Of a stretch of DNA of 64,000 bases, positions 45,125 through 63,703 are shown piece by piece (within the stretch, counting starts at the first letter, position 1; every line of letters begins with the position of its first letter). Position numbers and translations under genes: made by a program. A model generated the notes under the pieces. The model saw only the letters and a program-made list of their open reading frames with translations. It did no database searches and was not told the DNA's origin. The stretch is taken from contig OZ244744.1 of NCBI GenBank assembly GCA_965219455.1, positions 3,808,001-3,872,000 of the forward strand. Reading direction: 5' to 3'. This DNA comes from Candidatus Latescibacterota bacterium. Its GTDB lineage: Bacteria > Latescibacterota > UBA2968 > GCA-2709665.

Positions 45125-45163
45125 ATACACGCTTCCGGCTGTTGGTTAAACGCCGAACGCGTC

Positions 45164-45192
45164 TTGCACAGGTTACTGAAATTCGCTATGAT
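45164..45192 (+). promoter_or_regulatory. Putative sigma70 promoter of the aspartic protease gene
   Basis: TTGCAC-N17-TATGAT; a similar promoter precedes the pseudogene copy near 49055. Confidence 0.55.
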
Positions 45193-45236
45193 TCAAAGAA
45201 TTCAATAGTGAAACCTGTTCACTAGGAGAACGGCCA

Positions 45237-45599
45237 ATGGGCGCGACCTATGTTGACGTAACCATCCGCAACCCCGCGGATCCGGGACGCAGCTGGACAG
45301 GCAGTTTCCTCGTCGATACAGGCGCGTTCGATTCGCTCGTGCCACGGGTGCAACTCGATGCGATCGGGCTCACACCGAGAGGCAGCCGCGAGTACGTGCT
45401 TGCAGACGGAAAATCCGTCGCCATGGACATCACGATAGCGGAACTTGAGTTTGAGGGTGAAGTCGTGGGCGGAACCATTGTCTATGGGGATGTGGGCGCC
45501 GAACCTCTACTCGGCGTAACTGCTCTGGAATCAGGCGGATTCGAAGTCGACCCTCGCAATGAAGAATTAAAGCGGCTGCCGGCGGTTCTGTTGAAATGA
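45237..45599 (+). CDS. Clan AA (retropepsin-like) aspartic protease
   Basis: FLVDTGA, LADG, PLLGVTALE. Confidence 0.9.
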   Translation: MGATYVDVTIRNPADPGRSWTGSFLVDTGAFDSLVPRVQLDAIGLTPRGSREYVLADGKSVAMDITIAELEFEGEVVGGTIVYGDVGAEPLLGVTALESGGFEVDPRNEELKRLPAVLLK

Positions 45600-47810: not shown

Positions 47811-48122
47811 TTACTGCTTCGCCAGCGGTTCGATAGATAGCCTGAAGCCGAGGCTGTTCAGGATTTTCTCCATTGTGTCCAGACGAGGATTGCCCTTTTC
47901 GGAAAGCGCCTTGTATACGTGGGCTCGGTTCAGGTTCGCCTGCCTGGCCAATCGTCCCATCCCGCCCTGTATCGTGGCTACGTCCTTGAGTGCAAGCAGA
48001 AGGATCGATCTGTCCTTGTCTCTGGCGTAATCTTCCAGGGCGACCTCGAGGTAGGCGCGAGCGCGTTCTGGATCACTGAGGAATTCGAAATGGTGCTTTT
48101 CAAACGGGATGGAAGGCTTCAT
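47811..48122 (-). CDS. Addiction-module antitoxin (HI1420-type HTH)
   Basis: AYLEVALE, GGMGRLARQANLNRAHVYKALSEKGNPRLDT. Confidence 0.9.
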   Translation of the reverse strand: MKPSIPFEKHHFEFLSDPERARAYLEVALEDYARDKDRSILLLALKDVATIQGGMGRLARQANLNRAHVYKALSEKGNPRLDTMEKILNSLGFRLSIEPLAKQ

Positions 48123-48445
48123 CGGAAACGCTCCTTGTAGTCAGCCAGGTAAGCTATCGCTCGCTCGATATCTCTCTGCTGCGTACTCTTGTCTCCGCCA
48201 CACAGCAGGAGTAGGCTGTCTGTAGCGACACGCGTGAAATAGATTCGAAAACCCGGACCGAAGTCCACGCGCATCTCAATGACACCGCCACCGATGGGCC
48301 GGTGGTCGCCCAGAAGGCCCAGACTCAAACGGCGGAGACGGGCTTCTATGCGAGCCTGTGTCCGGATATCCCGAAGCGCGCCGAACCATTCAGTAAAGGG
48401 CTGTCTGCCGTTTCGAGCGACGTATATTTCAACCGTGAACCCCAT
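48119..48445 (-). CDS. RelE/HigB-type addiction-module toxin (HI1419-type)
   Basis: PFTEWF, RLSLGLLGD, EMRVDFGPGFRIYF, LLCGGDKSTQQRDI. Confidence 0.9.
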   Translation of the reverse strand: MGFTVEIYVARNGRQPFTEWFGALRDIRTQARIEARLRRLSLGLLGDHRPIGGGVIEMRVDFGPGFRIYFTRVATDSLLLLCGGDKSTQQRDIERAIAYLADYKERFR

Positions 48446-48811
48446 CAGGTATCTAATGTACGTTATAACAGATATCATGGCAACTAAGATCCTCCGCCAC
48501 CAGGCCGTCTGCCGCACGCTGCCTGCCGGGTTCTTCCCGCCGCTGTCGCATTTTGCAACACCCGGGAGCGAGGGCATCTTGCCCTCGACGCGCTCTTTCT
48601 GGTCCTGCTACGTCACGGCGCAGGCGTGAACTGATTGGCCTTTTTGCCGTCCGCCGGGTTCTTGGCCCCTCTGTTGCATTTTGCGACACTCTTGATCACG
48701 GGCGTAACGCTTGCCCGAACGCCTGTTTTCTCGCACCGGTGTCGCGTTTGTAGCGGCGAGGATAACGTTCACATGACGTCGGCGCCATTGGCTGATCCAT
48801 GCGTGGTATCC

Positions 48812-48839: not shown

Positions 48840-49126
48840 ATAAGCAACGCGGGCGCGAGGTTTGGTGTGCCCGATTGCCCTCTTGCTTTTTCCGTCTTGC
48901 CTCTTGGCTTTTTGTCTCTGGCTGCTCGCTGCCCGCTGCATCCCCGACGCTGTTTTTACCGCGCCGTCGTTGCAAACCGCACGGGCAGCCGGCCCAAACT
49001 TGCACTGGCGCCTGGATGAGGGCCGGTAAAGTGGTCCGCAGCTTCGTCAACGGCTTGCAATGGGTACGTGAATTCACTATGATTGCAGGAAATGACGGTA
49101 TAATCCATTCGCACGGAGAACCGCGT

Positions 49127-49490
49127 GTGGGTGCAACCTACGTTGACGTAACCATCCGCAATCCTGCGGATCCGGAACGAAGTTGGACAGGCAAATTCCT
49201 CGTCGATGCCGGCGCGTTCGACTCGTTCGTGACGGGGCGCAACTCGAATCGATCAGACTTACACTGAGTAGGACGCCGCGAGTACGTAATTGAGGACGGA
49301 AAACCCGTCGCCATGGACATAACTATCGCGGAAATCGAGTTTGAGGGTGAAGTTGGGGGTGGAACCATCGTTTCTGGGATGAAGGCGCCCGACCCCCGCT
49401 CGGCGTTACGGCACTGGAACCAGGCGGATTCGAGGTCGGCCCGCGAAACGAAGAATTGAAGCAGTTGAGGGGGATTCTGTTGACGGGATG
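49127..49490 (+). pseudogene. Degraded paralog of the 45237 aspartic protease
   Basis: VGATYVDVTIRNPADP..FLVDAGA (DTG changed to DAG), premature TGA at 49265, frameshifts; DNA collinear with 45237-45599. Confidence 0.85.
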
Positions 49491-49688: not shown

Positions 49689-50318
49689 ATGAAATCCTAT
49701 ACAGTGCAACTCGAAATTGCCGGTCCTACGGCCATGTGGACTCGGCCGGACACCGGATCGTCACCGGTGTCTTATGTGGCACCTACCTTCAGTGCAGTGA
49801 AAGGAATCTTTGAGTCTGTCCTTCGTTGGAAATCCGCAAATGTGCGCCCGGTGAAAGTGGAAATATGCCGGCCAGTCCAGTTTCATCGTTACGTCACCAA
49901 CTACGGCGGGCCATTGCGTGCATCTGACGCAATAAGGAAAGGCGCATCATTCCAGTTATTTGCGATGGTGCTGGTGAACGTTTGCTACCGGCTCTACGCT
50001 GAGGTGGACTGGAATCGCGGGCCAAACGGGGAACGGGCGCAGGCACCTGATGGTCAATGTTCACCTCATGCTTTTCAGGATGCCTTCAACCGTCGGTTGG
50101 TGAACGGCCAGTGGTTTTATACGCCCTGCCTCGGGTGGAAGGAGTTCGCCCCGGATTATATGGGGCCGTTTCGTCCAGAGACATGCGTGTGCGAAAGCGA
50201 AAGTCACGAATTGCCCTCCATGTTGCGCATGGTATTTGACCGCCCGCAGCAAGGTTGCATCAAGCCAAGCTTCAGCCAGGGAATGAAAGTTGAGAAAGGA
50301 GTCCTGGTCTATGCTTAA
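49689..50318 (+). CDS. cas5: Cas5 (type I-C-like)
   Basis: LEIAGPTAMWTRPD..VSYVAPTFSAVKGIFESVL; PCLGWKEF. Confidence 0.9.
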   Translation: MKSYTVQLEIAGPTAMWTRPDTGSSPVSYVAPTFSAVKGIFESVLRWKSANVRPVKVEICRPVQFHRYVTNYGGPLRASDAIRKGASFQLFAMVLVNVCYRLYAEVDWNRGPNGERAQAPDGQCSPHAFQDAFNRRLVNGQWFYTPCLGWKEFAPDYMGPFRPETCVCESESHELPSMLRMVFDRPQQGCIKPSFSQGMKVEKGVLVYA

Positions 50319-52506
50319 TGAACTGTATCAGGTCTCGCAGAGTCTGGAGCGCGTGGGCATCAATTTCCCATCGCGAGATTCGCGCATCAGCCCGATGGGA
50401 AAGAATAGGGAATTGTTGATCGTGCGGCTGAATGACGATGCGGAACTGTCCGACATGGAGTTCGTTTCAGGAGCAGTGGCAGCCAATCTTTATCGGGTTG
50501 AGCACGGTTCGGCGGGTTCCAGCTTCCCCGGGTTCAATCTCCCCACGCCACTTCGAGACCTCACTCAGGTATCCACTGACTTGAAACCTGTTTTGCAGCG
50601 GCTCAGTGACCTTTGGAAAAAAAAGGATTCATCTACAGAGCAGATTCACGATGCCATGAAGGAACTCGCTCAATTGTCTTGTGGGTACCCATTCACCGGC
50701 AGTCAATGCAAGCAGTTCAAGCGCTCGGTCATCGAGTTGGTTCAGGAGCTTCAAGGCACGTTCTGCAAGGCCGGGCCGGAACTGACCAGCTTCAAACGAC
50801 TTTTGGATGTGGTCGGACGAGCCGAACTCGACTTAGAGCGGTTCGTCCAGAACCTAACGAACGCCTTGCTTCGGACGGCGAAGACAACAGACCGCAAGAC
50901 CCTCTCCTCAATTCAGGGAGTCTTATTCGGTGTGCTTGATTGGAAAAAGCGCAGTGCCGATTTGGGAACAGTCGAATACGAAGAAGAAAAGGCAAAGCGA
51001 GATAAAAACGCCAATCAACCTATTTATCTGGATGTAGCAAATATGGATCACAGATTCAAGCCCGTCGCTCATCAGGATACGAGTAAAGCGATAAACAAAA
51101 TTCTGGTCCAGCAATCCAATGCGGAAGATCAGACTGATCAAAGTGTGGTTGACGCCTTTGGAAGTCGAGGTTCATTGCAGGACAAGTATCCAACGCCAAA
51201 GATCGCAAAACTCGGTGATATGAAGCTTTTTTCAGTGAATACGAACGAAATTTCAGCATTGAATCGCTATGGACTGAAGGGATCCAAGCAGTTCCCAGCA
51301 TCCACTCAGGTCGTACAGAAGATGAGCGACGTTCTGCTCTACTTGGGTGATGAAGGAAGAGAAGAGGGCGTTACTTGGAAGCCAGTCCCGGGTAACCTTG
51401 TGGACAGAAAGGGTAAAAACAAAAACGACTTGTTGATCGCCTATCTGGAGGAAGCACCGGAATTTCAGGAAGAACTGGCCGATCTATTCGGTGGCGAGGC
51501 ACCGTCCTTTGGTGATGACGATTTCGCGGCACGTACGCAGCCCGTGCTACAGGTATTAGATGCCAAGTTAAAGACGGAGCCGAACCTGAAAGTTCGACTT
51601 CTGGCGCTCTGTTCACTCGACAAGGCACGCAAGCAGATCAGCCTGCATCGCCAGTTCCGTGTGCAGGACGTCGTTCAGGCGGCTTGTGGGTGGAAGACCG
51701 GAGCCGCCAACACGCCGCCTGTTTCCATCTGGTTCTATGACAAGAAGGAAAAGAAAGCTGTATGGAAACCTCATGTTGTACCTCACCCACTTGACCTGAC
51801 ATCGGTCATAAATCGCGTCTGGAATTCCGACCCCAAGTCCGGCTTTAAATTCAAATTCCAGCGAGCTGTCATGACGTCGGACGCTTACGACGTATTCTTT
51901 GCTGACGGACCAATATCCGAGAGTAAGACGCGCTCTTGCTTTTCTCTTCTTTTGCATCGGATGTCTCCGGTCCTTGTTCGCCTCGGTGGAGTCAAGACCA
52001 GCCGTAATTGGAAAAACTTGAGTGAGACAATTCGCTGGCAATGCAGGAAGGCGATTTCACTCATCGGCATTCTCCTTCATCAACTCGAACATCGAAAGGA
52101 TCAATTTATGAAAGACTCAATCTATCAAATCGGGCGGCTGCTGGCTCTGGCCGACAGCCTGCATTTTCAATACTGTAAGTGGGTCCGCACCTCGGACGGC
52201 AAGCGCAAGAACGGCGAGGTGGATGCGCCTTCCGAATTGCTCGGCAACTCACTTTTCAACTTCGCCCTCGAAGACCCGGTAGCGGCACTCGCCCGTCTCG
52301 CCGAGCGTATTCGGCCGTACAAGGGCTGGGCAGATACCTACTCGGGTGAGGACGCAGGATTGGTTCACTGGTTTGTTCGCCAAATGGGCGAATGCGAACG
52401 CCAGTTTGATGCTACCGATCTTCCCAATCGCATGGAAGACATTCACAAAGCGCAACTCCTTCTCGGCTACTTGGCCGATCATCCGAAGACTGAAATGGAG
52501 GATTAA
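50311..52506 (+). CDS. cas8: Divergent Cas8 large subunit
   Basis: Lies between cas5 and cas7; MLNELY start; C-terminal YQIGRLLA...LLGY resembles Cas8c/Cas11. Confidence 0.7.
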   Translation: MLNELYQVSQSLERVGINFPSRDSRISPMGKNRELLIVRLNDDAELSDMEFVSGAVAANLYRVEHGSAGSSFPGFNLPTPLRDLTQVSTDLKPVLQRLSDLWKKKDSSTEQIHDAMKELAQLSCGYPFTGSQCKQFKRSVIELVQELQGTFCKAGPELTSFKRLLDVVGRAELDLERFVQNLTNALLRTAKTTDRKTLSSIQGVLFGVLDWKKRSADLGTVEYEEEKAKRDKNANQPIYLDVANMDHRFKPVAHQDTSKAINKILVQQSNAEDQTDQSVVDAFGSRGSLQDKYPTPKIAKLGDMKLFSVNTNEISALNRYGLKGSKQFPASTQVVQKMSDVLLYLGDEGREEGVTWKPVPGNLVDRKGKNKNDLLIAYLEEAPEFQEELADLFGGEAPSFGDDDFAARTQPVLQVLDAKLKTEPNLKVRLLALCSLDKARKQISLHRQFRVQDVVQAACGWKTGAANTPPVSIWFYDKKEKKAVWKPHVVPHPLDLTSVINRVWNSDPKSGFKFKFQRAVMTSDAYDVFFADGPISESKTRSCFSLLLHRMSPVLVRLGGVKTSRNWKNLSETIRWQCRKAISLIGILLHQLEHRKDQFMKDSIYQIGRLLALADSLHFQYCKWVRTSDGKRKNGEVDAPSELLGNSLFNFALEDPVAALARLAERIRPYKGWADTYSGEDAGLVHWFVRQMGECERQFDATDLPNRMEDIHKAQLLLGYLADHPKTEMED
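52108..52506 (+). CDS. cas11: Putative internally translated Cas11 small subunit
   Basis: Internal SD AAAGGA plus in-frame ATG immediately before YQIGRLLA; 132 aa. Confidence 0.6.
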   Translation: MKDSIYQIGRLLALADSLHFQYCKWVRTSDGKRKNGEVDAPSELLGNSLFNFALEDPVAALARLAERIRPYKGWADTYSGEDAGLVHWFVRQMGECERQFDATDLPNRMEDIHKAQLLLGYLADHPKTEMED

Positions 52507-52511
52507 CGTAT

Positions 52512-53435
52512 ATGAATGCTAAAGAACAAAGAGACACCACCCGGGTTCCTCGAATCACTGGGCTGCTTGTCATTGAAGTCCGCAAATCCAACCCCAACGG
52601 CGACCCTGAACGCGAAAGTTCGCCGCGCCAGCGCCCAGACGCCAAAGGCGAGATCTCGCCGGTGTCCATCAAACGCAAGCTCCGTGATCTGGTCTTGGAA
52701 AAAGAGGGCGTGGTCTGGCAGGAGCTCAAGGGCAAACTGGAAATTCAGAGTGACCAGCAGTTCCAGATTCTCGAGTATCGCGGGAGAAACCGCGACGAAA
52801 TCAGAAAACTCATGGAAACTCCGAAGGGCCAACTCTCCCAAGCGTTCAAAGATGCCTACTGGGACGGACGCCTGTTTGGGAATACGTTCCTCGAAGAAGG
52901 CGGTGGGGATACGATCCGTGCCGGGGTGGCACATTTCGGCGTCGGCGTTTCTGTGGCACCGATAGAAATCGAGTTTTCAACGTGGACGAACATGGCTGGT
53001 GTTCAAGAGGGCAAAGATCGCGGCATGGCCCCAATGGGATTTCGCGTCCTAAAACATGGCGTTTATGCTGCACCTTTTTTCGTCAATCCCAGTTTGGCCC
53101 ACAAGACGGGATGTACGAAACTCGACATTGACCTGATGCTTGAGCTTCTACCACTGGCATACGCGCATACCCGCTCGGTTGTTCGAACAATGGTCGAGGT
53201 AGTTCACGCTCACGTTTTCACCCATAATAAGCCGCTCGGTTCGCTGTCGGATTTCGCTCTACTGGATGCGCTCACGCCCCGCAAGACATCGGACCTGGAC
53301 AAGCCGTCAAACTCACTGGGCGAGTACGAGATTCCGACTTGGGATGAGATCAAAGAGAAACCTATTCGGGCCGGAGCCAAGAAAACATTTTCGGATTGCG
53401 GAACTTACCGCGACTACACACTTGATAGCGAGTAA
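52512..53435 (+). CDS. cas7: Cas7 (Csd2/Cas7c-like)
   Basis: SNPNGDP..PR, SIKRKLRD, YWDGRLFG, AHKTG. Confidence 0.9.
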   Translation: MNAKEQRDTTRVPRITGLLVIEVRKSNPNGDPERESSPRQRPDAKGEISPVSIKRKLRDLVLEKEGVVWQELKGKLEIQSDQQFQILEYRGRNRDEIRKLMETPKGQLSQAFKDAYWDGRLFGNTFLEEGGGDTIRAGVAHFGVGVSVAPIEIEFSTWTNMAGVQEGKDRGMAPMGFRVLKHGVYAAPFFVNPSLAHKTGCTKLDIDLMLELLPLAYAHTRSVVRTMVEVVHAHVFTHNKPLGSLSDFALLDALTPRKTSDLDKPSNSLGEYEIPTWDEIKEKPIRAGAKKTFSDCGTYRDYTLDSE

Positions 53436-53437
53436 AC

Positions 53438-55738
53438 ATGTCGCTTGCCAACCTGTCACCTCTGGCCCACAGCGCCCGAAGGGGCTCGCCAGAGCAGAGC
53501 TACCATGACCATGTGACCAATGTGCGCCGCTTCGCAACCAAGTTTGCTCGCGAAGCGGCGGCATATTCGGAAGGCTGTCGGGAACTCTTTCAAGCTGTGG
53601 TGGAGTTAGTAGCCACTTATCACGACCTTGGTAAGTTGGACGAGATCTTCCAAGACATTCTGCACCGCAACCGCCCCAATAACGAAGGCTTCAATCACGT
53701 CGAAGCAGGCACGGCGTATCTCAAGAAGCTAAAGCAGGGCGAGGCGGCGCTGTGCTGTTTTGCCCACCACATTGGCCTGCCGTCCCTGCCGAAAGAGAAA
53801 GCGAGGGGTGACGGACGGCTGTTTTTGCGTGACGAAAAAGAGTTAAACGTCATCGGGGTTCGGTCTTGGGAACGGACAGACGAACTGCTCGATGGCTATC
53901 TCGCCCAACACCACTCCCTTTTTGATCCGCAGTCAGCCGGTGTTTCTGTCAAGTTCACCGGCTTAGTCCGCCGCCTGGCTTTATCGTGTCTGGTGGATGG
54001 AGACCATAGTGATACCGCGCAGCACTACCAAGAAGAACGTGAACTGGACGGCCTTCCACTTAAGGCCGCTGATCGTTTGCAGGCCTTGGACCGCTACGTA
54101 GAAAACCTCAAGAGTGATCAGACCAACAAGTCCCAAAGAGAAAAGGATCGGCTTCGTTTGCGTCAGAGCATTTATAAGGCGTGCCGTAACAGGACACTTG
54201 AATCCACTGAACGATTTGTCGCCTGTGATAGTCCGGTAGGTACCGGCAAGACCACCGCCGTAATGGCTCATCTGCTGCGCGTCGCTTCCGAACGCGGTCT
54301 GCGCCGAGTGTTCGTAGTTCTTCCATTCACCAATATCATTGATCAGTCCGTTGAAACTTATCGTAGAGCATTGGTGCTGCCTGGTGAAGATCCTGAAGCG
54401 GTGGTCGCCGCTCACCATCACCGTGTTGAGTTTAGTGGTGAGAAATGGAGAGATTTGCGGCAACTGGCTCAGCGCTGGGAAGCACCTGTCGTAGTGACTA
54501 CAGCAGTGCAGTTTTTCGAGACGCTGGCCTCTAATCGGACGATCGGACTCCGAAAACTCCATCAAGTGCCGGGCTCAGCCATCTTCGTAGACGAAGCACA
54601 CGCGGCCATGCCGGCACCGCTGTGGCCTCAGCACTGGCGCTGGTTGAAGGAACTTTGCGATGACTGGAATTCCCACCTCGTTTTCGCCAGTGGTTCACTG
54701 TCGCGTTTCTGGGCATTGGAGGACTTCGTTCCAGTTGAGCAACAGAGTCCCGTTCCTGAACTCCTTACTGGGAAATTGAATGAGCAAGCCCACGCCTTCG
54801 AAGCCAGACGGATTTATCTCAAGAGCCGGGATGATCTGTTGGGTCTGACAGCATTGGCGGATTTTATCGTTGAAAAACCGGGACCTCGATTGGTAATCCT
54901 GAACACCGTGCAATCCGCCGCTATCCTAGCCAAACACCTATGGGATCAATTCTATCCCGGTTGTGGCTGGGCAGGCGAGACGGACTCAAGAGTAGAGCAC
55001 ATCTCAACGGCAATTTGTCCCGCACATCGTGCAGTGATTATCTCCCGAATTAAACAGCGTCTCCGAAACAGATGGGATAACGACTGGACTTTAGTCGCCA
55101 CCAGTTGCGTTGAGGCAGGAGTAGATTTCTCGTTTCGCACCGCCTTTCGTGAACGCTGCAGCTTGACGAGCCTTCTCCAAATAGCCGGACGGGTCAGTCG
55201 CAGTGGCGAATATTCTAAAGCTGAGGTGTGGGATTTTCGACATGACGAATCTGGTTTTCTGAATTTGCATCCCAACTACAAAAGTTCGCGTAGGGTATTT
55301 GCTGACCTATTCGAAGAGTACGGTGAGGATCTTGGCCCTCAGCACTGCACCGAAGCCTTACGTCGAGAAGTCAATTCAGGTTTTGGGAAAACAGAGAACA
55401 TGGCTCGGCAAATCGTTGCCGCTGAGAAAAGTGAAGATTATCCCCAAGTTGCCCAAGACTGCCGGATTATCACAGCGGACACGTGCACGGTGCTTGTCAG
55501 TCAGGAATTGATTAATCGGTTTCAAACAAGAGATCCTAAACAATTTCCGTCGCCCCGCGAAGTCATGAATTATAGTGTGCAGGTGTGGCAAAATAAACTG
55601 AACGAACTACCAGTCACCCAACTACTGGATTTTGAATTAGTTGGCATCCAACCCAACTGCTACAACGGCTTCCTGGGTTACATGCGAGGATTGCTTCCCC
55701 TGTTAAAAGCGCAGCATGATGGAGGAATCGTCTTGTGA
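53438..55738 (+). CDS. cas3: Cas3 HD nuclease-helicase
   Basis: LAHS, HDLGK, HH, PVGTGKT, DEAH, VEAGVD, QIAGRVSR. Confidence 0.95.
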   Translation: MSLANLSPLAHSARRGSPEQSYHDHVTNVRRFATKFAREAAAYSEGCRELFQAVVELVATYHDLGKLDEIFQDILHRNRPNNEGFNHVEAGTAYLKKLKQGEAALCCFAHHIGLPSLPKEKARGDGRLFLRDEKELNVIGVRSWERTDELLDGYLAQHHSLFDPQSAGVSVKFTGLVRRLALSCLVDGDHSDTAQHYQEERELDGLPLKAADRLQALDRYVENLKSDQTNKSQREKDRLRLRQSIYKACRNRTLESTERFVACDSPVGTGKTTAVMAHLLRVASERGLRRVFVVLPFTNIIDQSVETYRRALVLPGEDPEAVVAAHHHRVEFSGEKWRDLRQLAQRWEAPVVVTTAVQFFETLASNRTIGLRKLHQVPGSAIFVDEAHAAMPAPLWPQHWRWLKELCDDWNSHLVFASGSLSRFWALEDFVPVEQQSPVPELLTGKLNEQAHAFEARRIYLKSRDDLLGLTALADFIVEKPGPRLVILNTVQSAAILAKHLWDQFYPGCGWAGETDSRVEHISTAICPAHRAVIISRIKQRLRNRWDNDWTLVATSCVEAGVDFSFRTAFRERCSLTSLLQIAGRVSRSGEYSKAEVWDFRHDESGFLNLHPNYKSSRRVFADLFEEYGEDLGPQHCTEALRREVNSGFGKTENMARQIVAAEKSEDYPQVAQDCRIITADTCTVLVSQELINRFQTRDPKQFPSPREVMNYSVQVWQNKLNELPVTQLLDFELVGIQPNCYNGFLGYMRGLLPLLKAQHDGGIVL

Positions 55739-56388
55739 CACCAGATCAAAACTGCAAGGCTCAAACTGTGAGTCCTCCCGACCCCATCCCTCTCTCACTC
55801 CTCAACGACTTCCTATATTGCCAGCGCCGGGCGGCACTGAAGGCGATTGAGGGGTGGCGCGGGACCAACGAGCATACCGTGGTCGGCGACAGCGTCCACC
55901 AGCGGGCTGACGATTCCAGTTACGAGACCGTCAAGGGCGTGACACTATTGCGCGCCCTACCCGTCTGGTCGGATCGTCTCGGGCTCAGTGGCAGATGCGA
56001 CATTGTCGAGCGGCATCCCGATGGTTCGTTAGTTCCAATAGAATATAAAAAGGGCAAACGTCGCAAATTTGATAACGACGACGCGCAGCTGTGCGCGCAA
56101 GCCTTGTGCTTGGAAGAGATGTTTGGGCTCGAGGTCCCACGAGGGGCTATCTTCCACGCCCGGAGCAAGCGCCGGAGGGAGGTTGAATTCACAGGGGACC
56201 TGCGTCGGCTCACGGTAGAGGCAATTCAGGCGGTACACCGGCTGATCGAGGAAAATGAAGTCCCACGGGCCGTCTATAAACCTCAATGTACAGAGTGCTC
56301 GCTGTTTGACTATTGTCTACCTGAAATTACCAGCGTTCCGCCCACTCTCGCGCAGGCGGCTCGGGAGGTGTTTGACACAACAGGCTAA
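55735..56388 (+). CDS. cas4: Cas4
   Basis: YCQRR, GRCDIVE, PIEYKKG, QLCAQALCLEEM, CxxCSLxxxC. Confidence 0.95.
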   Translation: MTPDQNCKAQTVSPPDPIPLSLLNDFLYCQRRAALKAIEGWRGTNEHTVVGDSVHQRADDSSYETVKGVTLLRALPVWSDRLGLSGRCDIVERHPDGSLVPIEYKKGKRRKFDNDDAQLCAQALCLEEMFGLEVPRGAIFHARSKRRREVEFTGDLRRLTVEAIQAVHRLIEENEVPRAVYKPQCTECSLFDYCLPEITSVPPTLAQAAREVFDTTG

Positions 56389-56430
56389 ATTCGCCCGGCT
56401 GTTGCGGGCCGAGGGGCTCAGTCGCAAATC

Positions 56431-57492
56431 ATGGCCATTATTCAGAACACCCTTTATCTGACGACCTCTGGCACCGTAGTACACAGGGATCATCTGACGC
56501 TTCGGGTCGAGATCGAAAAACAAACCCGATTGACTGTGCCGATTCACCACCTGGAGAGTATCTGTGCATTCGGGAGGGTCGTCGTTACGCCTTCCGCAAT
56601 GGCCTTATGCTGGCGACACCAGGTGGCGGTTCATTTTCATACCGAAAACGGGTACCTGTTGGCGCAGGTACTGGGCAGCGGAGACACCCGCTATCTGTTG
56701 CGTCGAGCACAGTACGCGGCGGCGGACAATCCGGAGGAAGCATCCCGGATTGCCCGCCAGTTCGTTGCTGGGAAATTGCAGAACTCGCGCACCAATTTGC
56801 AGCGGTCCGGCCGCGAGGCCGATACGGATTCGGATCGCGCGGAATTGGCCAGAGCGGCGAGTGAGCTGGCGCGGCTGATCCAGCAACTGGGAAATGCCGA
56901 ACCTTTGCCCCAAGATTCTGGGCTTCGGGAAGCGATTGACCCCATCAGAGGAATGGAGGGTCTCGGCGCCAGGGTATATTTCTCAGCGTTCCAGTATATG
57001 CTGAAACAGCAGCGGGACGACTTCAGGTTCTTGAATCGCTCTCGCCGTCCTCCTCGTGACCGCGTGAACTGCCTGCTGTCCTTCATTTACGCACTGGTGC
57101 GCCACGACTGTTTGGCGGCGTTAACGACCGCCGGATTGGATCCATTCGTCGGATGGCTCCACGCCACGCGGGCTGGAAGACCGGCGTGCGCATTGGATCT
57201 GATGGAAGAATTCCGGCCCTGTTTGGCTGAGCGTCTGGCGTTGACCCTGATCAATCGGCGACAGATTGAGCCAGGGCACTTTCGCGAACGAGAAGGCGGC
57301 GCCGTGGAATTTACCGACCGTGGCAGGAAGGAAGTGATTCAGGCCTGGCAGCGGCGCAAGCAGGCCGAGATAAAGCATGCCCTGTTTAAGGAAAATGTCC
57401 GTCTGGGACAGGTGTTCAGCATTCAAGCCCGGTTGCTCGCGAGGTACCTTCGCGGCGATATTCCCGACTATATTCCGTATATACCAAAGTAA
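56431..57492 (+). CDS. cas1: Cas1 (I-C)
   Basis: NTLYL, RGMEG, RSRRPPRDRVNCLLSF, LDLMEEFRP. Confidence 0.96.
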   Translation: MAIIQNTLYLTTSGTVVHRDHLTLRVEIEKQTRLTVPIHHLESICAFGRVVVTPSAMALCWRHQVAVHFHTENGYLLAQVLGSGDTRYLLRRAQYAAADNPEEASRIARQFVAGKLQNSRTNLQRSGREADTDSDRAELARAASELARLIQQLGNAEPLPQDSGLREAIDPIRGMEGLGARVYFSAFQYMLKQQRDDFRFLNRSRRPPRDRVNCLLSFIYALVRHDCLAALTTAGLDPFVGWLHATRAGRPACALDLMEEFRPCLAERLALTLINRRQIEPGHFREREGGAVEFTDRGRKEVIQAWQRRKQAEIKHALFKENVRLGQVFSIQARLLARYLRGDIPDYIPYIPK

Positions 57493-57530
57493 CGCAGTGT
57501 GTCCACTTTTTGTTGTTTGAGGAGAGCGGA

Positions 57531-57818
57531 TTGAAACTGATCGCGTACGACGTTTCGACAATTGACCGGGCGGGACAAAAACGACTACGCCGCGTGGCGA
57601 GGGCCTGCAAGGATTTTGGAGTTCGTGTACAAAAATCGCTGTTTGAATGCCAGGTTGGTAAAACGGAATGGGCGGTACTTCGAGATCGTCTACTGACGGA
57701 AATCGACCATGAGTACGACTCCCTTCGAATCTATCACCTCGATGAAGACACCGGAAAGGAGACCGAGCATCACGGAATCAGCGAACCAGTGGACCTGTCC
57801 GGTCCGCTTGTCCTGTAG
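57531..57818 (+). CDS. cas2: Cas2 (TTG start)
   Basis: SD GAGGAG; LIAYDVST..RLRRVARAC..RVQKSLFEC..DSLRIY. Confidence 0.92.
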   Translation: MKLIAYDVSTIDRAGQKRLRRVARACKDFGVRVQKSLFECQVGKTEWAVLRDRLLTEIDHEYDSLRIYHLDEDTGKETEHHGISEPVDLSGPLVL

Positions 57819-57998
57819 CTTGCGCGAACGTCAAGTGACGGAAATCTGCTGGTCTGTTCGCGCAAAGGGAAACCGTTTGTCTGACAACAGGTTGTCGAGT
57901 TTATCGACGGGTGGGTCAGCAATTCTACTCGTCTTTTTGATAGAATCGCGCATTCGGTTGTATAAACTGTTGTCTTTGTGCTGGTTGTAGCAACCAGC
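57819..57998 (+). promoter_or_regulatory. CRISPR leader
   Basis: gcgcgaac...gttcgcgc inverted motif after cas2; AT-rich run up to the first repeat. Confidence 0.75.
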
Positions 57999-58912
57999 AT
58001 CTCCCCTCACTCCGGTGGGGGGAGCGGATTGAAACTAAAATCCCACGTGCTGACAGTTGATAGCCCGCCGTATCTCCCCTCACTCCGGTGGGGGGAGCGG
58101 ATTGAAACGTTCGCCCGGACGCCGTCCCGGAAAAGGGGTGGCGCAATCTCCCCTCACTCCGGTGGGGGGAGCGGATTGAAACGCCTTCAAGTCCACGGGC
58201 GTTTCATTTACCGCCTGGCCGATCTCCCCTCACTCCGGTGGGGGGAGCGGATTGAAACCTCGAAGATGGCGAACTTCGCGTGATTATTCAGCGATCTCCC
58301 CTCACTCCGGTGGGGGGAGCGGATTGAAACATCCGACGTATGGGCCAGGCATTTCGCCGGAACTCGATCTCCCCTCACTCCGGTGGGGGGAGCGGATTGA
58401 AACATCAGGAATTGGCTGATCCCGTCTATGTCGGCTCTGGATCTCCCCTCACTCCGGTGGGGGGAGCGGATTGAAACCCGGAGCGTAAGGCTGTCAGACC
58501 TTCAAATGCCGATCTCCCCTCACTCCGGTGGGGGGAGCGGATTGAAACGGCGCTGCGATCGAGATTCAGAAAACGGTCAAGAATCTCCCCTCACTCCGGT
58601 GGGGGGAGCGGATTGAAACAGACAAAGAGCGACGCAGAAGGCCGAAAATCCCTGCATCTCCCCTCACTCCGGTGGGGGGAGCGGATTGAAACACTTTCGC
58701 TTTTCCGCAGGCTGACTGCACCACGTGCATCTCCCCTCACTCCGGTGGGGGGAGCGGATTGAAACTGACTTACAATGCCGCAAACCGTGATTATTCTTCG
58801 ATCTCCCCTCACTCCGGTGGGGGGAGCGGATTGAAACGTGGAAGACCGATTATGCCGAGATGGCCAAGAAGACAGATCTCCCCTCACTCCGGTGGGGGGA
58901 GCGGATTGAAAC
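57999..58912 (+). CRISPR. CRISPR array A: 13 identical 37-bp repeats, 12 spacers of 34-39 bp
   Basis: ATCTCCCCTCACTCCGGTGGGGGGAGCGGATTGAAAC at 57999, 58072, 58146, 58222, 58294, 58367, 58441, 58512, 58583, 58656, 58729, 58801, 58876. Confidence 0.98.
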
Positions 58913-58943
58913 CGGGCGGTAGCCACGTCCCATCAAGTTTGAG

Positions 58944-58975
58944 GTCGCTCTCCGTGAGGGAGCGTGAATTGAAAC
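58944..58975 (+). CRISPR. Single 32-bp repeat of the canonical I-C type (family B)
   Basis: GTCGCTCTCCGTGAGGGAGCGTGAATTGAAAC, with 31- and 37-bp spacers on either side. Confidence 0.75.
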
Positions 58976-59012
58976 TCGCACCTCTCGCGCAGTTCGAGAA
59001 AGTCGCCAACGA

Positions 59013-59121
59013 CCCCGCGGAATACTCCCATCAGAACAAGGATTGAAACCGTAGCGCGGTCTCGCTGCCTGTCATGCTGCCGAGCCCGGTGAGAATCTTC
59101 CATCGGAACAAGGATTGAAAC
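59013..59121 (+). CRISPR. Two 37-bp family C repeats with a 35-bp spacer
   Basis: ccccgcggaatactcccatcagaacaaggattgaaac and cccggtgagaatcttccatcggaacaaggattgaaac. Confidence 0.8.
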
Positions 59122-59178
59122 TCCACCACTCCGCGTCCCGCGCGGCCACACCCACCCCAGCCCAGGAGCCCGAACCCG

Positions 59179-60660
59179 ATGGGCGCGATGGAACGCCTCA
59201 CAGCAGACATCCAGGCGCTGCCGCTCGACATCGGGCGGATCATCGTCGGCGGGGTCCTGTTTGTCTACTTCCTCAACACGCTCAGGCAGGCGCCCGACTT
59301 CAGCGATCCCGACGGCTTGATCGACCACTGCCTGGTGTGCCGGCTCTTCCCTCCCACCCGCGTGAGCCTCTTTCAGCCGGGGATGCCGGGGGTGCTGTTC
59401 CGCGGCGTCTTCGTCTGCGCGTGCGGGGCGGCGCTCATGGTGGTCGCGGGCTTCCATCCGCGCGCAGCCGGAGCGTTCCTCTTCCTGTCGGCGTTGTCCG
59501 CCCTGCGCTGGAACGTGCTGGCCAGCTACCTCGACGACGCCATGATCCACATCTTCTGCCTGTGGATCGTGCTGCTGCCGGTGGGGAGTACGCTGAACGT
59601 GCCGGATCTGATCGCGGGGGGTTGGGGAAGCGCAACCACCGACACCTGGATCTCAGCGACCGTCCCCGGGGCCGCCCCCCGCGCCTTCATCGCCAACATG
59701 GCGCTCATCTATATCGTCGCCGGACTATACAAGTTCACAAGCCCGATGTGGCGCGACGGCTCCGCGATGCACTCCGCGCTCCGCATGCCAATCGCGCACG
59801 CGCCAGACTTCTGGACGTTGCGGTGGCGCACCCCGCTCCGTCTGGTAACCTGGGCCGCGCTGATCCTGGAGCCCCTCTTAGCGCTCATCTTCGTGCTGCC
59901 GCCAGGCTCGGCGCTCAAGTGGCTGCTGGTCGCGGGGGCCATCGTCTTCCACCTCGGGATCGCGTTTACGCTCAAGATCCCGTACTCCAACTCGGCGATG
60001 CTCGCCGCAATCCCGCTCGCCCTCGCGCCCGAGATCATGCAGGGCTGGCTGGGGCCGCCGCCGCTGGAGGGGGCTGTCGTGACGGCCGGCAATGCCGCCG
60101 CCGCTAACGACGGCCCCGGCCCCGCCGGCTGGATCGCCCTCACCCTCGTTGCGCTGATCGTGATCCAGGTCGTCTGGGAGGCCGTCAACACCGGTCGCCG
60201 GCTCCGCCCCCGCTATTCGTCGAGCGGCTGGGACAACCCGGTCCGCGCCCTCCTCTGGATGGCCGGCATCTTCCAGAGCTACCGCCTCTTCGACTGGGTC
60301 GACGAACGCAACCATCACGTGCGCTTCGAGGTCACGCGGGTGGGGCCGGGCACCCCCCTCAATCCCGACGCCATCTTCCCCCAGACCATGCGTCACCTCC
60401 TTCTCCAGTCGTACCTTGTCGGCAACATCTGGATGCGGATGAGCCCCGACCAACTCGAGCAGGTCCGCCGCTCGATCCTCATCCGGCACGCCCGCCGCTA
60501 CGCCCGCACGCACCCTGACGCGGGCACGATCGAAGCGGTCGCGATCGTGCAGCGGGTCACCGACGAGAACCTCGAGCTCACCCGCGGGGAGCGGCGGCCC
60601 ATGATGCGCTTCACCTGCCGGGGGGGCAGCGCCGTCATGCATCATCCACGAGAGGAATAG
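59179..60660 (+). CDS. HTTM-domain (SdpB/gamma-carboxylase-like) membrane protein
   Basis: FSDPDGL, LIYIVAGLYKFTSPMWRDGSA, VFHLGIA; many TM helices; soluble C-terminal domain. Confidence 0.75.
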   Translation: MGAMERLTADIQALPLDIGRIIVGGVLFVYFLNTLRQAPDFSDPDGLIDHCLVCRLFPPTRVSLFQPGMPGVLFRGVFVCACGAALMVVAGFHPRAAGAFLFLSALSALRWNVLASYLDDAMIHIFCLWIVLLPVGSTLNVPDLIAGGWGSATTDTWISATVPGAAPRAFIANMALIYIVAGLYKFTSPMWRDGSAMHSALRMPIAHAPDFWTLRWRTPLRLVTWAALILEPLLALIFVLPPGSALKWLLVAGAIVFHLGIAFTLKIPYSNSAMLAAIPLALAPEIMQGWLGPPPLEGAVVTAGNAAAANDGPGPAGWIALTLVALIVIQVVWEAVNTGRRLRPRYSSSGWDNPVRALLWMAGIFQSYRLFDWVDERNHHVRFEVTRVGPGTPLNPDAIFPQTMRHLLLQSYLVGNIWMRMSPDQLEQVRRSILIRHARRYARTHPDAGTIEAVAIVQRVTDENLELTRGERRPMMRFTCRGGSAVMHHPREE

Positions 60661-60669
60661 GGGGCGGCC

Positions 60670-62568
60670 ATGTGCGGCATTGCAGCGATCCTGTCCCGCA
60701 ACGGGCCCGTCGACGCGGGAGCCCTCCGCCGCGCCACCGGGGCCTTGCGGCATCGTGGGCCGGACGCGGAGCGTACCTGGGTTTCTCCGAGCGGCAGGAT
60801 CGGGCTGGGTCACCGGCTCCTCGTGATCAACGACCCCGAGGGCCACCAGCCGATCGCGAGCGAGGACGGGCGGCTGCACATCGTCGTCAACGGCCAGTTC
60901 TACGACTTCGCGCGCATCCGTACGTCACTCGAAGCCCGGGGGCACCGTTTCCGCACCCGCTCCGACAGCGAGATCGCGCTGCACCTCTACGAGGACCACG
61001 GCGCAGCGTGCCTGGAGCACCTGCGCGGCCAGTTTGCCTTCGTGGTCTGGGACGAGGAGACCGGCAACCTCTTCGCGGCGCGCGACCGCTTCGGCCTCAA
61101 GCCGCTCTTCTACACCGAACACGACGGTGCGCTCTACCTCGCGTCCGAGGCGAAGGCACTCTTCGCGGCGGGGGTGCCCCGCGCGTGGGACACCCAGGGC
61201 GTGTATCACTGGCTGCTCGCCTGCCCGGATGAGCGGCGGTCGCTCTTCGACGGGATCCGGCAGGTGCCGCCCGGGCACTTGATGAGGGCCAGTAACGGAT
61301 CAGTGCGGCTGCAGGGCTACTGGGACCTGCCGGCGTCGCCGCCGGGGGGGCGAGATGCCCCCGACTTCCCCCGCGCCGTCGAGCACGCCCGCGAACTCAC
61401 CGAGGAGGCGATCCGGCTGCGCATGGTAGCCGGGGTCCCCGTCGGCTGCCTGATCAGCGGCGGCCTCGATTCCTCTTCCGTCCTGGCCGTGGCGGCCACC
61501 TGCACGGACCGCCCGGTCGCCGCCTTCACGGTCGGGTTCGAGCGGCGCGAATTCGACGAGAGCCCGGGGGCACGGGAAGCGGCCGCCGCCGCCAACGCCG
61601 ACCACACCGTCGTCACGCTCAGCGACGCCGACCTGGCCGATCACTTCGCCGACGCCGTGTGGCACGCCGAGACGCTTCAGTTCAACACCCACGGCGCGGC
61701 GCGCTACCTGCTGAGCCGGGGCGTGCGCGACGCAGGCTACCGCTCGGTCCTCGCAGGCGAGGGCGCCGACGAGGCCTTCTTCGGCTACGAGTTCCTGCTC
61801 GCGGCGGCTGGTGCATCCCGCGGCGGATTCGGTCCGCGCAAGCTGCTGCGCATCCTGTCGGGATTCCTGCGCTCCCCCCGGCGCCACCACCCTACCCTGG
61901 CCGCCGTCTCCCCCTGGCTCGCCCGCCTCGCCCTCCTCCTCCCGGCGGCCCCCTCGCTCTTTACGCGGCTCTCGGGTGGACTCGGCCTCATCCAGTCGGT
62001 CTGCTCACGCGACTTCCTGCACCGCTTCGACGGCTACGACCCCTACCGCACCTATTACCTCCGCTGCAAGGAGGCCGCCGCCATCTCCCGGCGCGAACCG
62101 GCCCGGCAGCTCCTCTACCTCTGGCTGCACTCGATCTTCGCCAACTACCACATGGCCGCCGACCGGCTCGACATGGCGCACGGCGTCGAAGTCCGCCTCC
62201 CCTTCCTCGACCACCACCTCTTCGAGCACCTGAACCGCCTCCCGCTCGCCCTCCTCACCGACCATCCCCGCGAAAAGCACCTCCTGCGCGAGGCCATGCG
62301 CCCCCACATCCCGGACTCGGTGTACGGGGCGGTGAAGCGACCGTTCATGGCGCCATCGGCGGTTGGGGTGGACGGGCCGCTGCACGATTTTCTGCAGGAC
62401 ACGTTGCGGGGGGAGGGGCTGCGGGCCGTGCCGTTCGTGGATGCGGCGGCGGTGGGGGGCGTGCTGGACGGGCTGCCGCAGGTGGGTGAGCGGGAGCGCG
62501 GGTCGGTGGATTCGCTGCTGTTGATGCTGGCTTCAGTGGCGGTGTTGCAGGAGCGGTGGGGGTTGTAA
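60670..62568 (+). CDS. asnB: Asparagine synthase (glutamine-hydrolysing)-like amidotransferase
   Basis: MCGI, HRGPD, ARDRFGLKPL, SGGLDSS, GEGADE, EVRLPFLD. Confidence 0.92.
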   Translation: MCGIAAILSRNGPVDAGALRRATGALRHRGPDAERTWVSPSGRIGLGHRLLVINDPEGHQPIASEDGRLHIVVNGQFYDFARIRTSLEARGHRFRTRSDSEIALHLYEDHGAACLEHLRGQFAFVVWDEETGNLFAARDRFGLKPLFYTEHDGALYLASEAKALFAAGVPRAWDTQGVYHWLLACPDERRSLFDGIRQVPPGHLMRASNGSVRLQGYWDLPASPPGGRDAPDFPRAVEHARELTEEAIRLRMVAGVPVGCLISGGLDSSSVLAVAATCTDRPVAAFTVGFERREFDESPGAREAAAAANADHTVVTLSDADLADHFADAVWHAETLQFNTHGAARYLLSRGVRDAGYRSVLAGEGADEAFFGYEFLLAAAGASRGGFGPRKLLRILSGFLRSPRRHHPTLAAVSPWLARLALLLPAAPSLFTRLSGGLGLIQSVCSRDFLHRFDGYDPYRTYYLRCKEAAAISRREPARQLLYLWLHSIFANYHMAADRLDMAHGVEVRLPFLDHHLFEHLNRLPLALLTDHPREKHLLREAMRPHIPDSVYGAVKRPFMAPSAVGVDGPLHDFLQDTLRGEGLRAVPFVDAAAVGGVLDGLPQVGERERGSVDSLLLMLASVAVLQERWGL

Positions 62569-62657
62569 GGGATCGCTTGGTGGGCCAAAATGTAAGACAG
62601 ACCTTACAGAATGTCGTGTTTGTTGTACATGTCGCTTGCGTCCGACGCTGGACGACT

Positions 62658-62678
62658 TAACATAAGCAGCTTATGTTA
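62658..62678. promoter_or_regulatory. Perfect palindrome (operator-like) before a small ORF
   Basis: TAACATAAGC-A-GCTTATGTTA. Confidence 0.55.
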
Positions 62679-62683
62679 TTGAC

Positions 62684-62878
62684 ATGGACAACACAATCCG
62701 AAGTTATCTCGCCGAAATCGGTCGGAGAGGCGGCAGGAAGAGTCGTCGCACTCTGGACCCGGAGACCGCCAGGGCCATGGTCCGCGTCCGCGAGGCCCGG
62801 CGGGCGTATCGCAAGTACAACGCCACATGTTTCTGGTCCTACCGCAAGGATCTGAGTATCGGCCTGACCGATGTGCCT
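62684..62878 (+). pseudogene. Small basic protein truncated at a CRISPR repeat
   Basis: YLAEIGRRGGRKSRR...CFWSY..DVP, then the frame runs into repeat C and IS21. Confidence 0.55.
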
Positions 62879-62899
62879 GGTGAGAATCTTCCATCAGAA
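62876..62899 (+). CRISPR. 5' 24 nt of a family C repeat, cut by IS21
   Basis: cctggtgagaatcttccatcagaa, 22/24 identical to 59085-59108. Confidence 0.75.
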
Positions 62900-63703
62900 T
62901 GTCAATGATCGCCCATATGCGGCCAATGCGGGATCGGCCTAATCAGGCCACCTGGGATGCGATTGAGGTTTCGGACTTTCCGTCAACGATTCTACCTTCT
63001 GAGTGTCTCCCCGACATTCAGGAGGGAAGAACATGGCAAACCGGAGGTTCGAGATGTATGAGTATCGCCAGGTATTGGCGCGTATGCGGTTGGGCGAGTC
63101 GGATCGTGCGATCGCCCGTTCAGGGTTGATAGGACGCCAGAAGGGCAGCGCTTGTCTGTGCGCCTGCGCGCAACGCGCGGGCAGGCGCACAGGCAGGCGC
63201 TTCGTGAGGTGGCCGGCCGTGAGGGATGGCTGGAGGCTTCCAGCGTGATGCCCGATGATGCGGCGCTCGCGCAGGTTCTACAGCACCCTTCCTCGCGTCC
63301 TCAGTCGGCGGCGTCGGTTTTGCTCTACCAGGACAAGGTCACGGCCTGGTGGCGTCAGTGTATCCGAGGTACGGTCATCCACCAGGCGTTGGTGGACACC
63401 TGCGGCTATGCCAGCTCGTATTCTTCCATCCGGCGTTTTCTCCAGGGGCTCAAAGGCGCTCATCCCGATGTCACCACCGAGTTGGACTTCGATCCCGGCG
63501 ACGTGGCGCAGGTGGACTTTGGGCGTGGTCCAACCATAAAGGACGTCTTAACACACCAGTCCATCGCGACGTGGATCTTCGTGATGGTGCTGGCCTGGTC
63601 TCGCCACCAGTATGCCGAGATCGTACCGGATCAAAAGGTCGAGACGTGGCTTTGCTGCCATCGAAGCGCCTTCGAGTTCTTCGGCGAGCGCCGGCATTCT
63701 TGA
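62900..63703 (+). mobile_element. istA: IS21-family element (left end and disrupted istA)
   Basis: TGTCAATG left end; MANRRFEMYEYRQVL at 63033; PGDVAQVDFG, FVMVLAWSRHQY; frameshift and early stop. Confidence 0.85.
63151..63197. repeat. 47-bp nested palindromic insertion that frameshifts istA
   Basis: cttgtctgtgcgcctgc..gcaggcgcacaggcagg; removing it restores KGSALREVA. Confidence 0.75.

Follow-up and report, generated by a model that had tools for sequence, protein, structure and literature searches.

In type I-C adaptation, foreign DNA is placed between direct copies of a CRISPR repeat, with borders exact to the base, without homology between insert and target, and with cas1, cas2 and cas4 adjacent. 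The current view is that Cas1-Cas2 keeps spacers to a strict length and that CRISPR stands in the way of gene transfer. Here we describe a 3754-bp, gene-bearing DNA segment in spacer position at the CRISPR locus of a sponge-associated Candidatus Latescibacterota bacterium, the genome of which (G000) is a single contig of 5.84 Mb. The whole stretch analyzed, called the window, is 64,000 nucleotides (nt) long (G000:C1:3808001-3872000), and positions past 64000 are given as window-equivalents. It was compared with 14 other genomes of the same genus (G001-G014), and 100 relatives were searched (101 genomes including G000). The segment, referred to as the insert or cassette 1, has all the above traits of type I-C acquisition. 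It is unlike ordinary acquisition in its length (3754 bp vs 34-45 nt), in its two intact genes and in its place on the trailer side of the array.

Other systems resemble the locus in part. Casposons carry Cas1 relatives, the casposases, which integrate kilobase elements and duplicate their target, a duplication thought to foreshadow the CRISPR repeat (passages of PMC5137440 and PMC6977970). The insert is likewise kilobase DNA and may share the Cas1-type chemistry. Unlike a casposon, it lacks a casposase, polB and terminal inverted repeats, represents a random piece of a cellular chromosome, and has a CRISPR repeat as its target. Integron cassettes are similar in having promoter-less, co-oriented genes, a recurring short site, a fixed platform upstream and a content that varies between relatives. 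They differ in that here no IntI-type tyrosine recombinase was present among the scanned open reading frames (ORFs), attC hairpins are missing, a CRISPR repeat serves as the site, and gene fragments are allowed. Tn7-like array-targeting transposons also bring large DNA into CRISPR arrays, but, as portrayed in part of bioRxiv 10.1101/2024.10.13.618069, they carry tns genes and element ends and have a fixed offset inside spacers, whereas the insert has no mobility genes and its borders are at the repeat edges. Stand-alone repeats near cas loci but outside regular arrays are also a feature of solitary repeats, mini-arrays and Racr (section of PMC10651486) and of repeat-like RNA elements (section of bioRxiv 10.1101/2023.03.03.530964). 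These elements function as small RNAs with spacer-sized inserts or none, while here solo repeats bracket chromosomal coding segments of 0.2-5 kb. No description of kilobase-scale DNA in spacer position was found in the literature searched, a scope outside of which most subscription journals fall. The words 'kb-long spacer' in a passage of PMC8860600 belong to 'kb-long spacer acquisition hotspots' and are irrelevant.

The insert is bordered by two copies of a repeat of family C, the right one (C′) being incomplete (Table 1). Both are on the same strand and are identical at 22 of 24 positions, with 3754 bp (59122-62875) between them. A degenerate 24-nt pattern for both copies had exactly two sites in the window and none in 100 dinucleotide-preserving shuffles. 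An earlier annotation of the window, made by a model from the sequence alone (the initial annotation), had described this arrangement, including an insertion sequence (IS) cutting the second copy, and direct reading and the pattern search confirmed it. The IS terminus severs C′ at 62899|62900. The initial annotation had suggested looking beyond the IS for the rest of the repeat and for more repeats: the missing 13 nt were nowhere nearby, but further C repeats do follow, from 65315 on.

Table 1 Positions in the window of the insert, its genes and the surrounding features of the CRISPR locus.
Feature	Position	Strand	Remarks
cas operon cas5-cas8c-cas7-cas3-cas4-cas1-cas2	49689-57818	+	NCBIfam
Presumed leader	57819-57998		before array A
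Regular array of 13 family-A repeats (37 nt)	57999-58912	+	spacers of 34-39 nt
Single repeat B (32 nt), of a third kind, GTCGC...GAATTGAAAC	58944-58975	+	read in the sequence; partial match within family D2
C0, a family-C repeat variant	59013-59049	+	followed by an ordinary 35-nt spacer, 59050-59084
C, complete family-C repeat CCCGGTGAGAATCTTCCATCGGAACAAGGATTGAAAC	59085-59121	+	left border of the insert
Insert in spacer position, 3754 bp (cassette 1)	59122-62875	+	slice of a Longimicrobiales-like chromosome
Intact 493-aa membrane protein	59179-60660	+	SdpB/HTTM-like (weak)
Intact 632-aa asparagine-synthase-like amidotransferase	60670-62568	+	Asn_synthase E 4e-78, GATase_7 E 8e-42 (Pfam)
First 64 codons of a small ORF of ~88 codons	62684-62875	+	severed by the right border
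C′, first 24 nt (5′) of a second family-C repeat, CCTGGTGAGAATCTTCCATCAGAA	62876-62899	+	right border of the insert
Truncated IS fragment	62900-63700	+	left terminus and N-terminal part of an IstA-like transposase
Start of an endonuclease/exonuclease/phosphatase (EEP)-family gene, 443 aa	63944-64000	+	ends at 65275, beyond the window; Pfam Exo_endo_phos

The guanine plus cytosine (GC) content of the insert is 68.9%, compared with 53.7% for the cas operon and 58.3% for the genome. Genome windows of the same size have a standard deviation of 3.2%, and 0.17% of them reach 69%. The insert has three ORFs, all on the array strand. A Pfam scan found no recombinase or mobility gene in it, and none of the 25 longest inverted-repeat pairs joins its two ends. 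Recombinases were also absent among the ORFs scanned at 45237-84597, a scan outside of which lie the ORFs at 47811-48577 and several short downstream ORFs. Most of what the initial annotation had said of the insert was upheld by these results, namely that it is more GC-rich than the cas operon, encodes an AsnB-like enzyme (Table 1), lacks an integrase and terminal inverted repeats, and has its last ORF truncated at the junction. For this ORF a correction is needed: homology ends at ...TDV (62875), and the P that had been counted with it comes from CCT of the repeat. Its frame continues for nine codons through repeat and IS (74-codon ORF). The annotation of the 493-aa product as an HTTM protein was less well borne out. 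It had no Pfam match at E ≤ 0.01, and its match to the NCBIfam SdpB family was weak (E 3.5e-6; 26.9 bits, below the cut-off of 178).

Four contigs of a metatranscriptome (run X18, a 'sponge metagenome' RNA library) lie on both insert genes with 0-2 mismatches. They are a hint of expression of the insert genes, no proof of transcription, and silent on processing at the repeats. The left end of the insert had also been considered as a donor transcription start; this was dropped because a promoter scan gave no sigma-70-like site. A palindromic motif, TTAACATAAGC.GCTTATG.TA, is found just upstream of the small ORF (62640-62683) and is conserved in the insert and its distant homologues (L027-L029). 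It resembles the operator of a small two-gene module, the second gene of which is missing in G000.

The insert is foreign and originates from a chromosome of the Longimicrobiales (Gemmatimonadota). G000 has a single copy of its DNA, and the 14 other genus genomes gave only two trivial matches (30-51 nt). In the 100 relatives, matches were limited to short conserved stretches (65-76% identity) and a handful of a size expected by chance. Donors were searched with the 493-aa protein against one genome per species, a set from which records of the own genome may be left out. Of the 47 loci obtained, 46 were metagenome-assembled genome records of Gemmatimonadota/Longimicrobiales, with 47-90% protein identity, and one was a distant Flavobacteriales record. 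The donor proteins align to residues 1-493 of the HTTM-like protein, at up to 90% identity. At the nucleotide level (blastn of 58900-63100 against 46 loci), the insert was colinear with the donor loci, with 82-93% identity in the closer donors and a maximum of 93.6% to any donor compared. RpoB of G000, on the other hand, is 56-57% identical to that of three donor-lineage genomes. Because the host is so distant from the donors by RpoB, the insert has been horizontally transferred. When donor locus L035 was taken as the reference, at least 1 kb of colinear sequence was present upstream in 25 and downstream in 19 of the 45 other loci. The donor flanks are syntenic, and therefore the captured piece is an arbitrary internal slice of a conserved chromosomal neighborhood. 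Neither C nor A repeats occurred in the 47 donor loci, and no C repeats in three donor genomes.

The homology to the donors ends to the base at the repeat borders. On the left side, high-scoring segment pairs (HSPs) start at 59122 in seven loci and at 59126 in two, and in the remaining loci the first HSP starts at 59192-59311. On the right side, they stop at 62875 in 13 loci, at 62863-62869 in five and at 62880 in one. No HSP passes either border by more than 5 nt in the 46 donor loci. Read base by base, the donor sequence outside the left junction is ...GTAGATTG before TCCACC, and outside the right junction it is GACTGGG... or GAGTGGG... after GATGTG. These outer flanks bear no relation to the repeats or the array, and neither junction shows in-register microhomology. 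The right junction lies after codon 64 of the small ORF. An intact small ORF in a donor locus, which the initial annotation had proposed to look for, was found in eight of the nine donors examined, with 24 further codons; the ninth has it as a fusion with the gene that follows. Three small-ORF homologues from the host's own class also extend 24 codons beyond the junction.

Parts of the stretch were present in 21 of 22 sequencing runs, and four runs were examined in detail. Contigs from three separate studies cross the left junction: X1 (1891 nt, 58930-60773, six mismatches), X3 (223 nt, 59022-59244, no mismatch) and X4 (327 nt, 58930-59209, no mismatch). X1 may be the source sample. The initial annotation had called for a check of both junctions, and this was successful for the left one; the right one is crossed by no listed contig. 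Here, contigs end at 62849-62852, in a stretch highly conserved among co-occurring donor relatives, and we take the unbridged junction as neither support nor refutation. A contig of X4 extends past 62875 with the donor version, and donor relatives therefore live in the same kind of sample. The contamination estimate for the genome is 8.49%.

A second segment, cassette 2 (65352-66598, GC 0.70), is found further downstream between two complete C repeats and carries a gene of 360 aa (family F10). A second copy, 95.6% identical and including the upstream repeat, with which the copy starts, is present at 79050-80270. G011 has cassette 2 between C repeats, once whole and once partial, the latter between its A array and a long C-variant array. 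In G013, it immediately follows a series of 37 A repeats and precedes a C repeat. In the G011 cassette, the 55 codons immediately following the repeat match positions 311-349 of 350 of FMN_dh (Pfam, E 1.6e-7, above the cut-off). They are the tail (~40 residues) of an FMN-dependent dehydrogenase, the gene body of which is absent. Cassette 2 is thus a second case of a cut within a gene at a repeat border. Relatives of F10 with 66-74% identity occur in 80 of 132 class genomes. A donor of cassette 2 was not found: none of 10 checked loci had an FMN-dehydrogenase gene end upstream, and three Longimicrobiales genomes gave nothing. Upstream of a shared EEP block, the order is C-cassette 2-C-spacer-A in G011 and C-cassette 1-C′/IS in G000. 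As these layouts differ, the content varies between relatives at a comparable place.

G010 has an 804-nt segment (L016:12910-13713; 68.5% GC) with a 170-aa ORF between two near-identical C repeats. It had no DNA relative in the 131 other class genomes, and the best metagenome relative of the ORF was 62% identical. This segment, found only in G010, is possibly a further capture, its origin being untraced.

Family C is widespread in the genus. A search of the 101 genomes with a 29-nt core, allowing up to three mismatches, detected it in 15 genomes, including 11 of the 14 other genus members; a reversed-pattern control gave no hits. G003, G006, G009 and G011 have regular C arrays, with 37-81 copies per genome and, among the arrays listed, a spacing of 71-90 nt, and C is therefore a working CRISPR repeat. 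Further C copies of G000 are on the same strand at 65315, 66599, 79050, 82807 and 83673, and a weaker copy is at 82482. After 66599 an array resumes (66599-66863) with a B-like repeat and two A repeats, the second of which contains a 16-nt insertion. C-like repeats 0.2-5.6 kb apart, distal to a regular array or replacing it, were found in G001, G008, G009, G010, G011, G012, G013 and G014. The gene families between solo C repeats vary and include an EEP-family nuclease, Nmad3, an Ig-repeat protein, a ParA-like protein and a split Hhe/PDC-S37 helicase-nuclease, among others. Between 59122 and 84597, all 16 filtered ORFs of at least 150 aa are on the array strand. Interruptions of the G003 array were considered as giant spacers and rejected, being IS insertions within spacers.

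The explanation we favor, with somewhat more confidence than doubt and judging from the DNA itself, is integration of an unprocessed long fragment by Cas1-Cas2, followed by repeat-mediated shuffling. A linear 3.75-kb Longimicrobiales fragment would have entered the host cell, where Cas1-Cas2, perhaps without the usual Cas4 or ruler trimming, would have joined it into the trailer-side array. The two 3′-OH ends of the untrimmed fragment would have attacked both borders of one family-C repeat, and gap repair would have duplicated this repeat, as in normal acquisition. Later, an IS may have landed in the downstream repeat copy and then itself been partly deleted. Units once placed between repeats are shuffled and copied by recombination between these, as cassette 2 shows. 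Cas1-Cas2 is favored because unrelated DNA with arbitrary ends was placed, without microhomology, at both spacer borders between two copies of one repeat. To our knowledge, Cas1 is the only enzyme with such repeat-border specificity. Its gene has a single match in the entire genome, 1.6 kb upstream of the insert and within the single adjacent cas1-cas2-cas4 module. Like a CRISPR spacer, the insert has direct copies of the array's repeat on both sides and meets them precisely at their edges, with no homology to its target. The ends of DNA of several kb are easily looped together, while a spacer of 30-40 bp is stiff (Rollie et al. 2015, part of the Discussion, PMC4574026).

Several observations weigh against this explanation. 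Cas1-Cas2 complexes measure spacer length, and the insert is ~100 times longer than the ordinary spacers (34-45 nt; n = 155 unique spacers, taken from G000 and the arrays of G003, G006, G009, G010, G011 and G013). Inserts of intermediate length were not seen inside the regular arrays. Spacer acquisition is normally leader-proximal, and the insert is on the trailer side, distal to 13 A repeats, one B and C0. C and C′ mismatch at two of 24 positions. The repeats flanking cassette 2 are different variants and in G013 even different families, so that duplication of a single repeat is not visible there. The canonical I-C protospacer adjacent motif (PAM) is TTC, and it is matched neither by the TTG that precedes the left end in six of seven donor loci nor by the TTT in the remaining one. 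A PAM could not be derived from the ordinary spacers because no protospacers were found: compared with the G000 genome and all compared loci, the 155 spacers gave self-matches only, and the G011 and G000 arrays had no match in a phage collection. The right junction is unbridged by the listed contigs. An allele with the site empty (C-spacer-C), which the initial annotation had suggested looking for in sister genomes, was not found. Capture of Cas1 type, as proposed in that annotation, stands as the best fit to the anatomy, with its base-exact borders, cut gene and absence of mobility genes; the catalysis we infer, and the trailer-side position and the absence of an empty allele speak against it. 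Its further proposal, that the array acts as a gene-capture platform, agrees with the presence of cassette 2 in three species and of solo C repeats in most genus members, but a donor was traced for cassette 1 only.

Recombination and end joining could also have brought in the segment. Were cassette 1 already located between C repeats in another array, homologous recombination within the repeats could have imported it, which we regard as unlikely for the insert itself. Repeat-bordered units do move or become duplicated at these loci, since cassette 2 and its upstream repeat are duplicated from the repeat on, twice present in G011 and located between A and C repeats in G013, and the EEP gene and cassette 2 follow each other in opposite order in G000 and G011; recombination in array evolution has also been published (passage of PMC4524480). 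However, the first placement of a Longimicrobiales segment devoid of repeats would still need a border-specific mechanism, and neither the 100 relatives nor the 47 species-representative loci yielded another copy of cassette 1, with the above proviso on own-genome records. For the spread of units, repeat-mediated import is plausible. Less probable still is a Cas1-independent capture, in which the DNA broke at or close to the two repeat borders and end joining, in mending the breaks, trapped a stray fragment. The arbitrary fragment ends and the lack of microhomology would be expected of blunt joining, and the neighborhood is full of rearrangements, gene fragments and IS scars. Yet for two breaks to fall precisely on the outermost bases of the spacer interval and spare both repeats would be very unlikely without a border-specific enzyme.

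Three further explanations, all foreseen in the initial annotation, lost ground. Delivery of the cargo by a repeat-targeting mobile element, for example a Tn7-like one, or by IS mobilization of the segment is largely refuted and has very little probability left. Tn7-like transposons homing to CRISPR arrays exist (part of bioRxiv 10.1101/2024.10.13.618069), an IS21-like terminus adjoins the second repeat, and IS elements interrupt the G003 array. But the insert has no transposase, element ends or terminal inverted repeats and is an internal slice of a syntenic donor chromosome, 24 nt of repeat separate it from the IS, and the Tn7-like elements, in the same part of that source, sit at a fixed position inside spacers and not at repeat borders. 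An assembly chimera, with a Longimicrobiales fragment of the same metagenome misjoined to the array, is about as improbable. It would be in line with the donor-type sequence in the same kind of sample (the X4 contig), with the contamination estimate and with the unbridged right junction. It is made unlikely by the left junction, which recurs in three runs, each of a different study, and by the lack of any sequence common to donor and array; the insert is, moreover, at most 93.6% identical to the donors compared, and a chimera would not put both joins exactly at CRISPR repeat borders. That the insert is a native chromosomal segment between two independent arrays is refuted, and we give it almost no weight. 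Families A, B and C do coexist at the locus, and arrays do resume at 66599-66863, but the segment was not seen in the 14 genus genomes, where the initial annotation would have sought it, and its GC content is beyond that of 99.8% of same-size windows. It is also 82-93% identical to DNA of another phylum, despite an RpoB identity of 56-57%, with homology that stops at the repeat borders to the base.

Judging by this locus, whole genes may now and then be captured by the machinery that inserts CRISPR spacers. If Cas1-Cas2 made the insert, the integrase could act in vivo like its casposase ancestors, and arrays could take up functional genes. This would have a bearing on the origin of CRISPR from casposons and on Cas1-Cas2 as a tool for inserting long DNA. 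Such an event would be new as a spacer-position integration with a gene-sized insert and, if recurrent and functional, as a way of acquiring genes. Array finders that discard long 'spacers' may miss such events. A wider reading, which we offer tentatively and with more doubt than confidence, is that in this genus the adaptation machinery repeatedly inserts long unprocessed DNA, whole foreign genes among it, at the repeat borders, the array trailer having become an integron-like store of cassettes in one orientation and the repeats serving as shuffling junctions, perhaps also as signals for RNA processing or translation start of the captured genes. Such signals are considered because a conserved small ORF starts ~6 nt after the C repeat in 21 copies. 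If this reading were true, CRISPR adaptation would be a route of horizontal gene acquisition besides immunity.

This small ORF belongs to a family of ~55-65 aa with the motif WHxDGTP...DY..AG.PVPT..QLA.WA. One copy is at L002:10630-10806 (82630-82806), and 20 further copies are spread across G001, G007, G008, G009, G010, G011, G012 and G014. The copies read begin ~6 nt past a C repeat and usually end at the next C repeat, hence the recurrent repeat spacing of ~190-260 nt. The median ratio of nonsynonymous to synonymous substitution rates (dN/dS) was 0.37 (98 pairs). No Pfam match at E ≤ 0.01 was obtained, the ORF being scanned within a 158-aa ORF, and there was no Atlas match. The motif is also the C-terminus of a 421-aa protein of G001. 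In the 158-aa open frame, a C repeat has the WHxDGTP ORF before it and a fragment of ~86 aa after it (L002:10807-11106, 82807-83106). The latter matches Peptidase_S58 (profile positions 125-164 of 307) and is a gene fragment abutting the repeat.

The region behind the array is a defense-island-like mosaic. It has an Hhe/PDC-S37-type helicase-nuclease defense gene (L001:15511-17841 and L002:3741-6269; 73511-78269), which a frameshift has probably split into two ORFs that overlap (776 and 842 aa), with a ParA-like ATPase pair upstream. A putative small ABC-ATPase-like gene, recognized by eye from its translation, has three copies or fragments (L002:6697-7049, 10360-10481 and 12904-13437; 78697-79049, 82360-82481 and 84904-85437), two of which are broken and end directly at C-like repeats. 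In G011, locus L091 (C5:3032001-3048000) has one cas locus, then 20 A repeats, then about 82 C-variant repeats. Between these two arrays are a small ORF, a C repeat and the truncated copy of cassette 2.

The IS next to C′ shares its terminal ~50-245 nt, from 62900-62905 on, with five other places in the genome. An ORF at 63152-63703 has a partial rve (integrase core) match and falls into one cluster (F28) with a 524-aa G003 protein. From 63700 on, the sequence is again homologous to the sister genome G011, and the IS is therefore a stump of ~800 bp; its right part and the remainder of the C′ repeat are deleted. The EEP gene is the first gene of the repeat-studded island beyond the insert. At its stop (65266-65277), GCGGATTGAAAC was considered as a repeat remnant and rejected, the same region being a conserved gene end in the G011 and G008 homologues.

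Repeat A forms a strong hairpin of 10 bp (-20.1 kcal/mol, z -3.4) that leaves a tail of 11 nt at the 3′ end, and the fold of consensus C is weak (-3.3 kcal/mol, z +1.0). The 3′ end ...GGATTGAAAC is common to both. The cas operon is, by its sequence, best classed as divergent type I-C-like. Cas1 scored 418.9 bits against NCBIfam Cas1c (cut-off 385), and Cas4 (129 bits) and Cas2 (52.6 bits) were each above their own NCBIfam cut-off. The effector subunits fit I-C weakly, the matches to the Cas5c, Cas8c, Cas7/Csd2 and Cas3 models being below cut-off, and the best NCBIfam model for Cas3 was I-G. The first cas2 codons contain a copy of the 3′ end of repeat A, GAGAGCGGATTGAAAC (57512-57540), ~460-500 nt upstream of the first A repeat; the cas2 starts of G011 and G013 are alike. 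The region just upstream of the cas operon is flanked by a direct repeat of ~435 bp (45160-45594 and 49051-49483; 78% identity), the first copy of which overlaps a retropepsin-like ORF.

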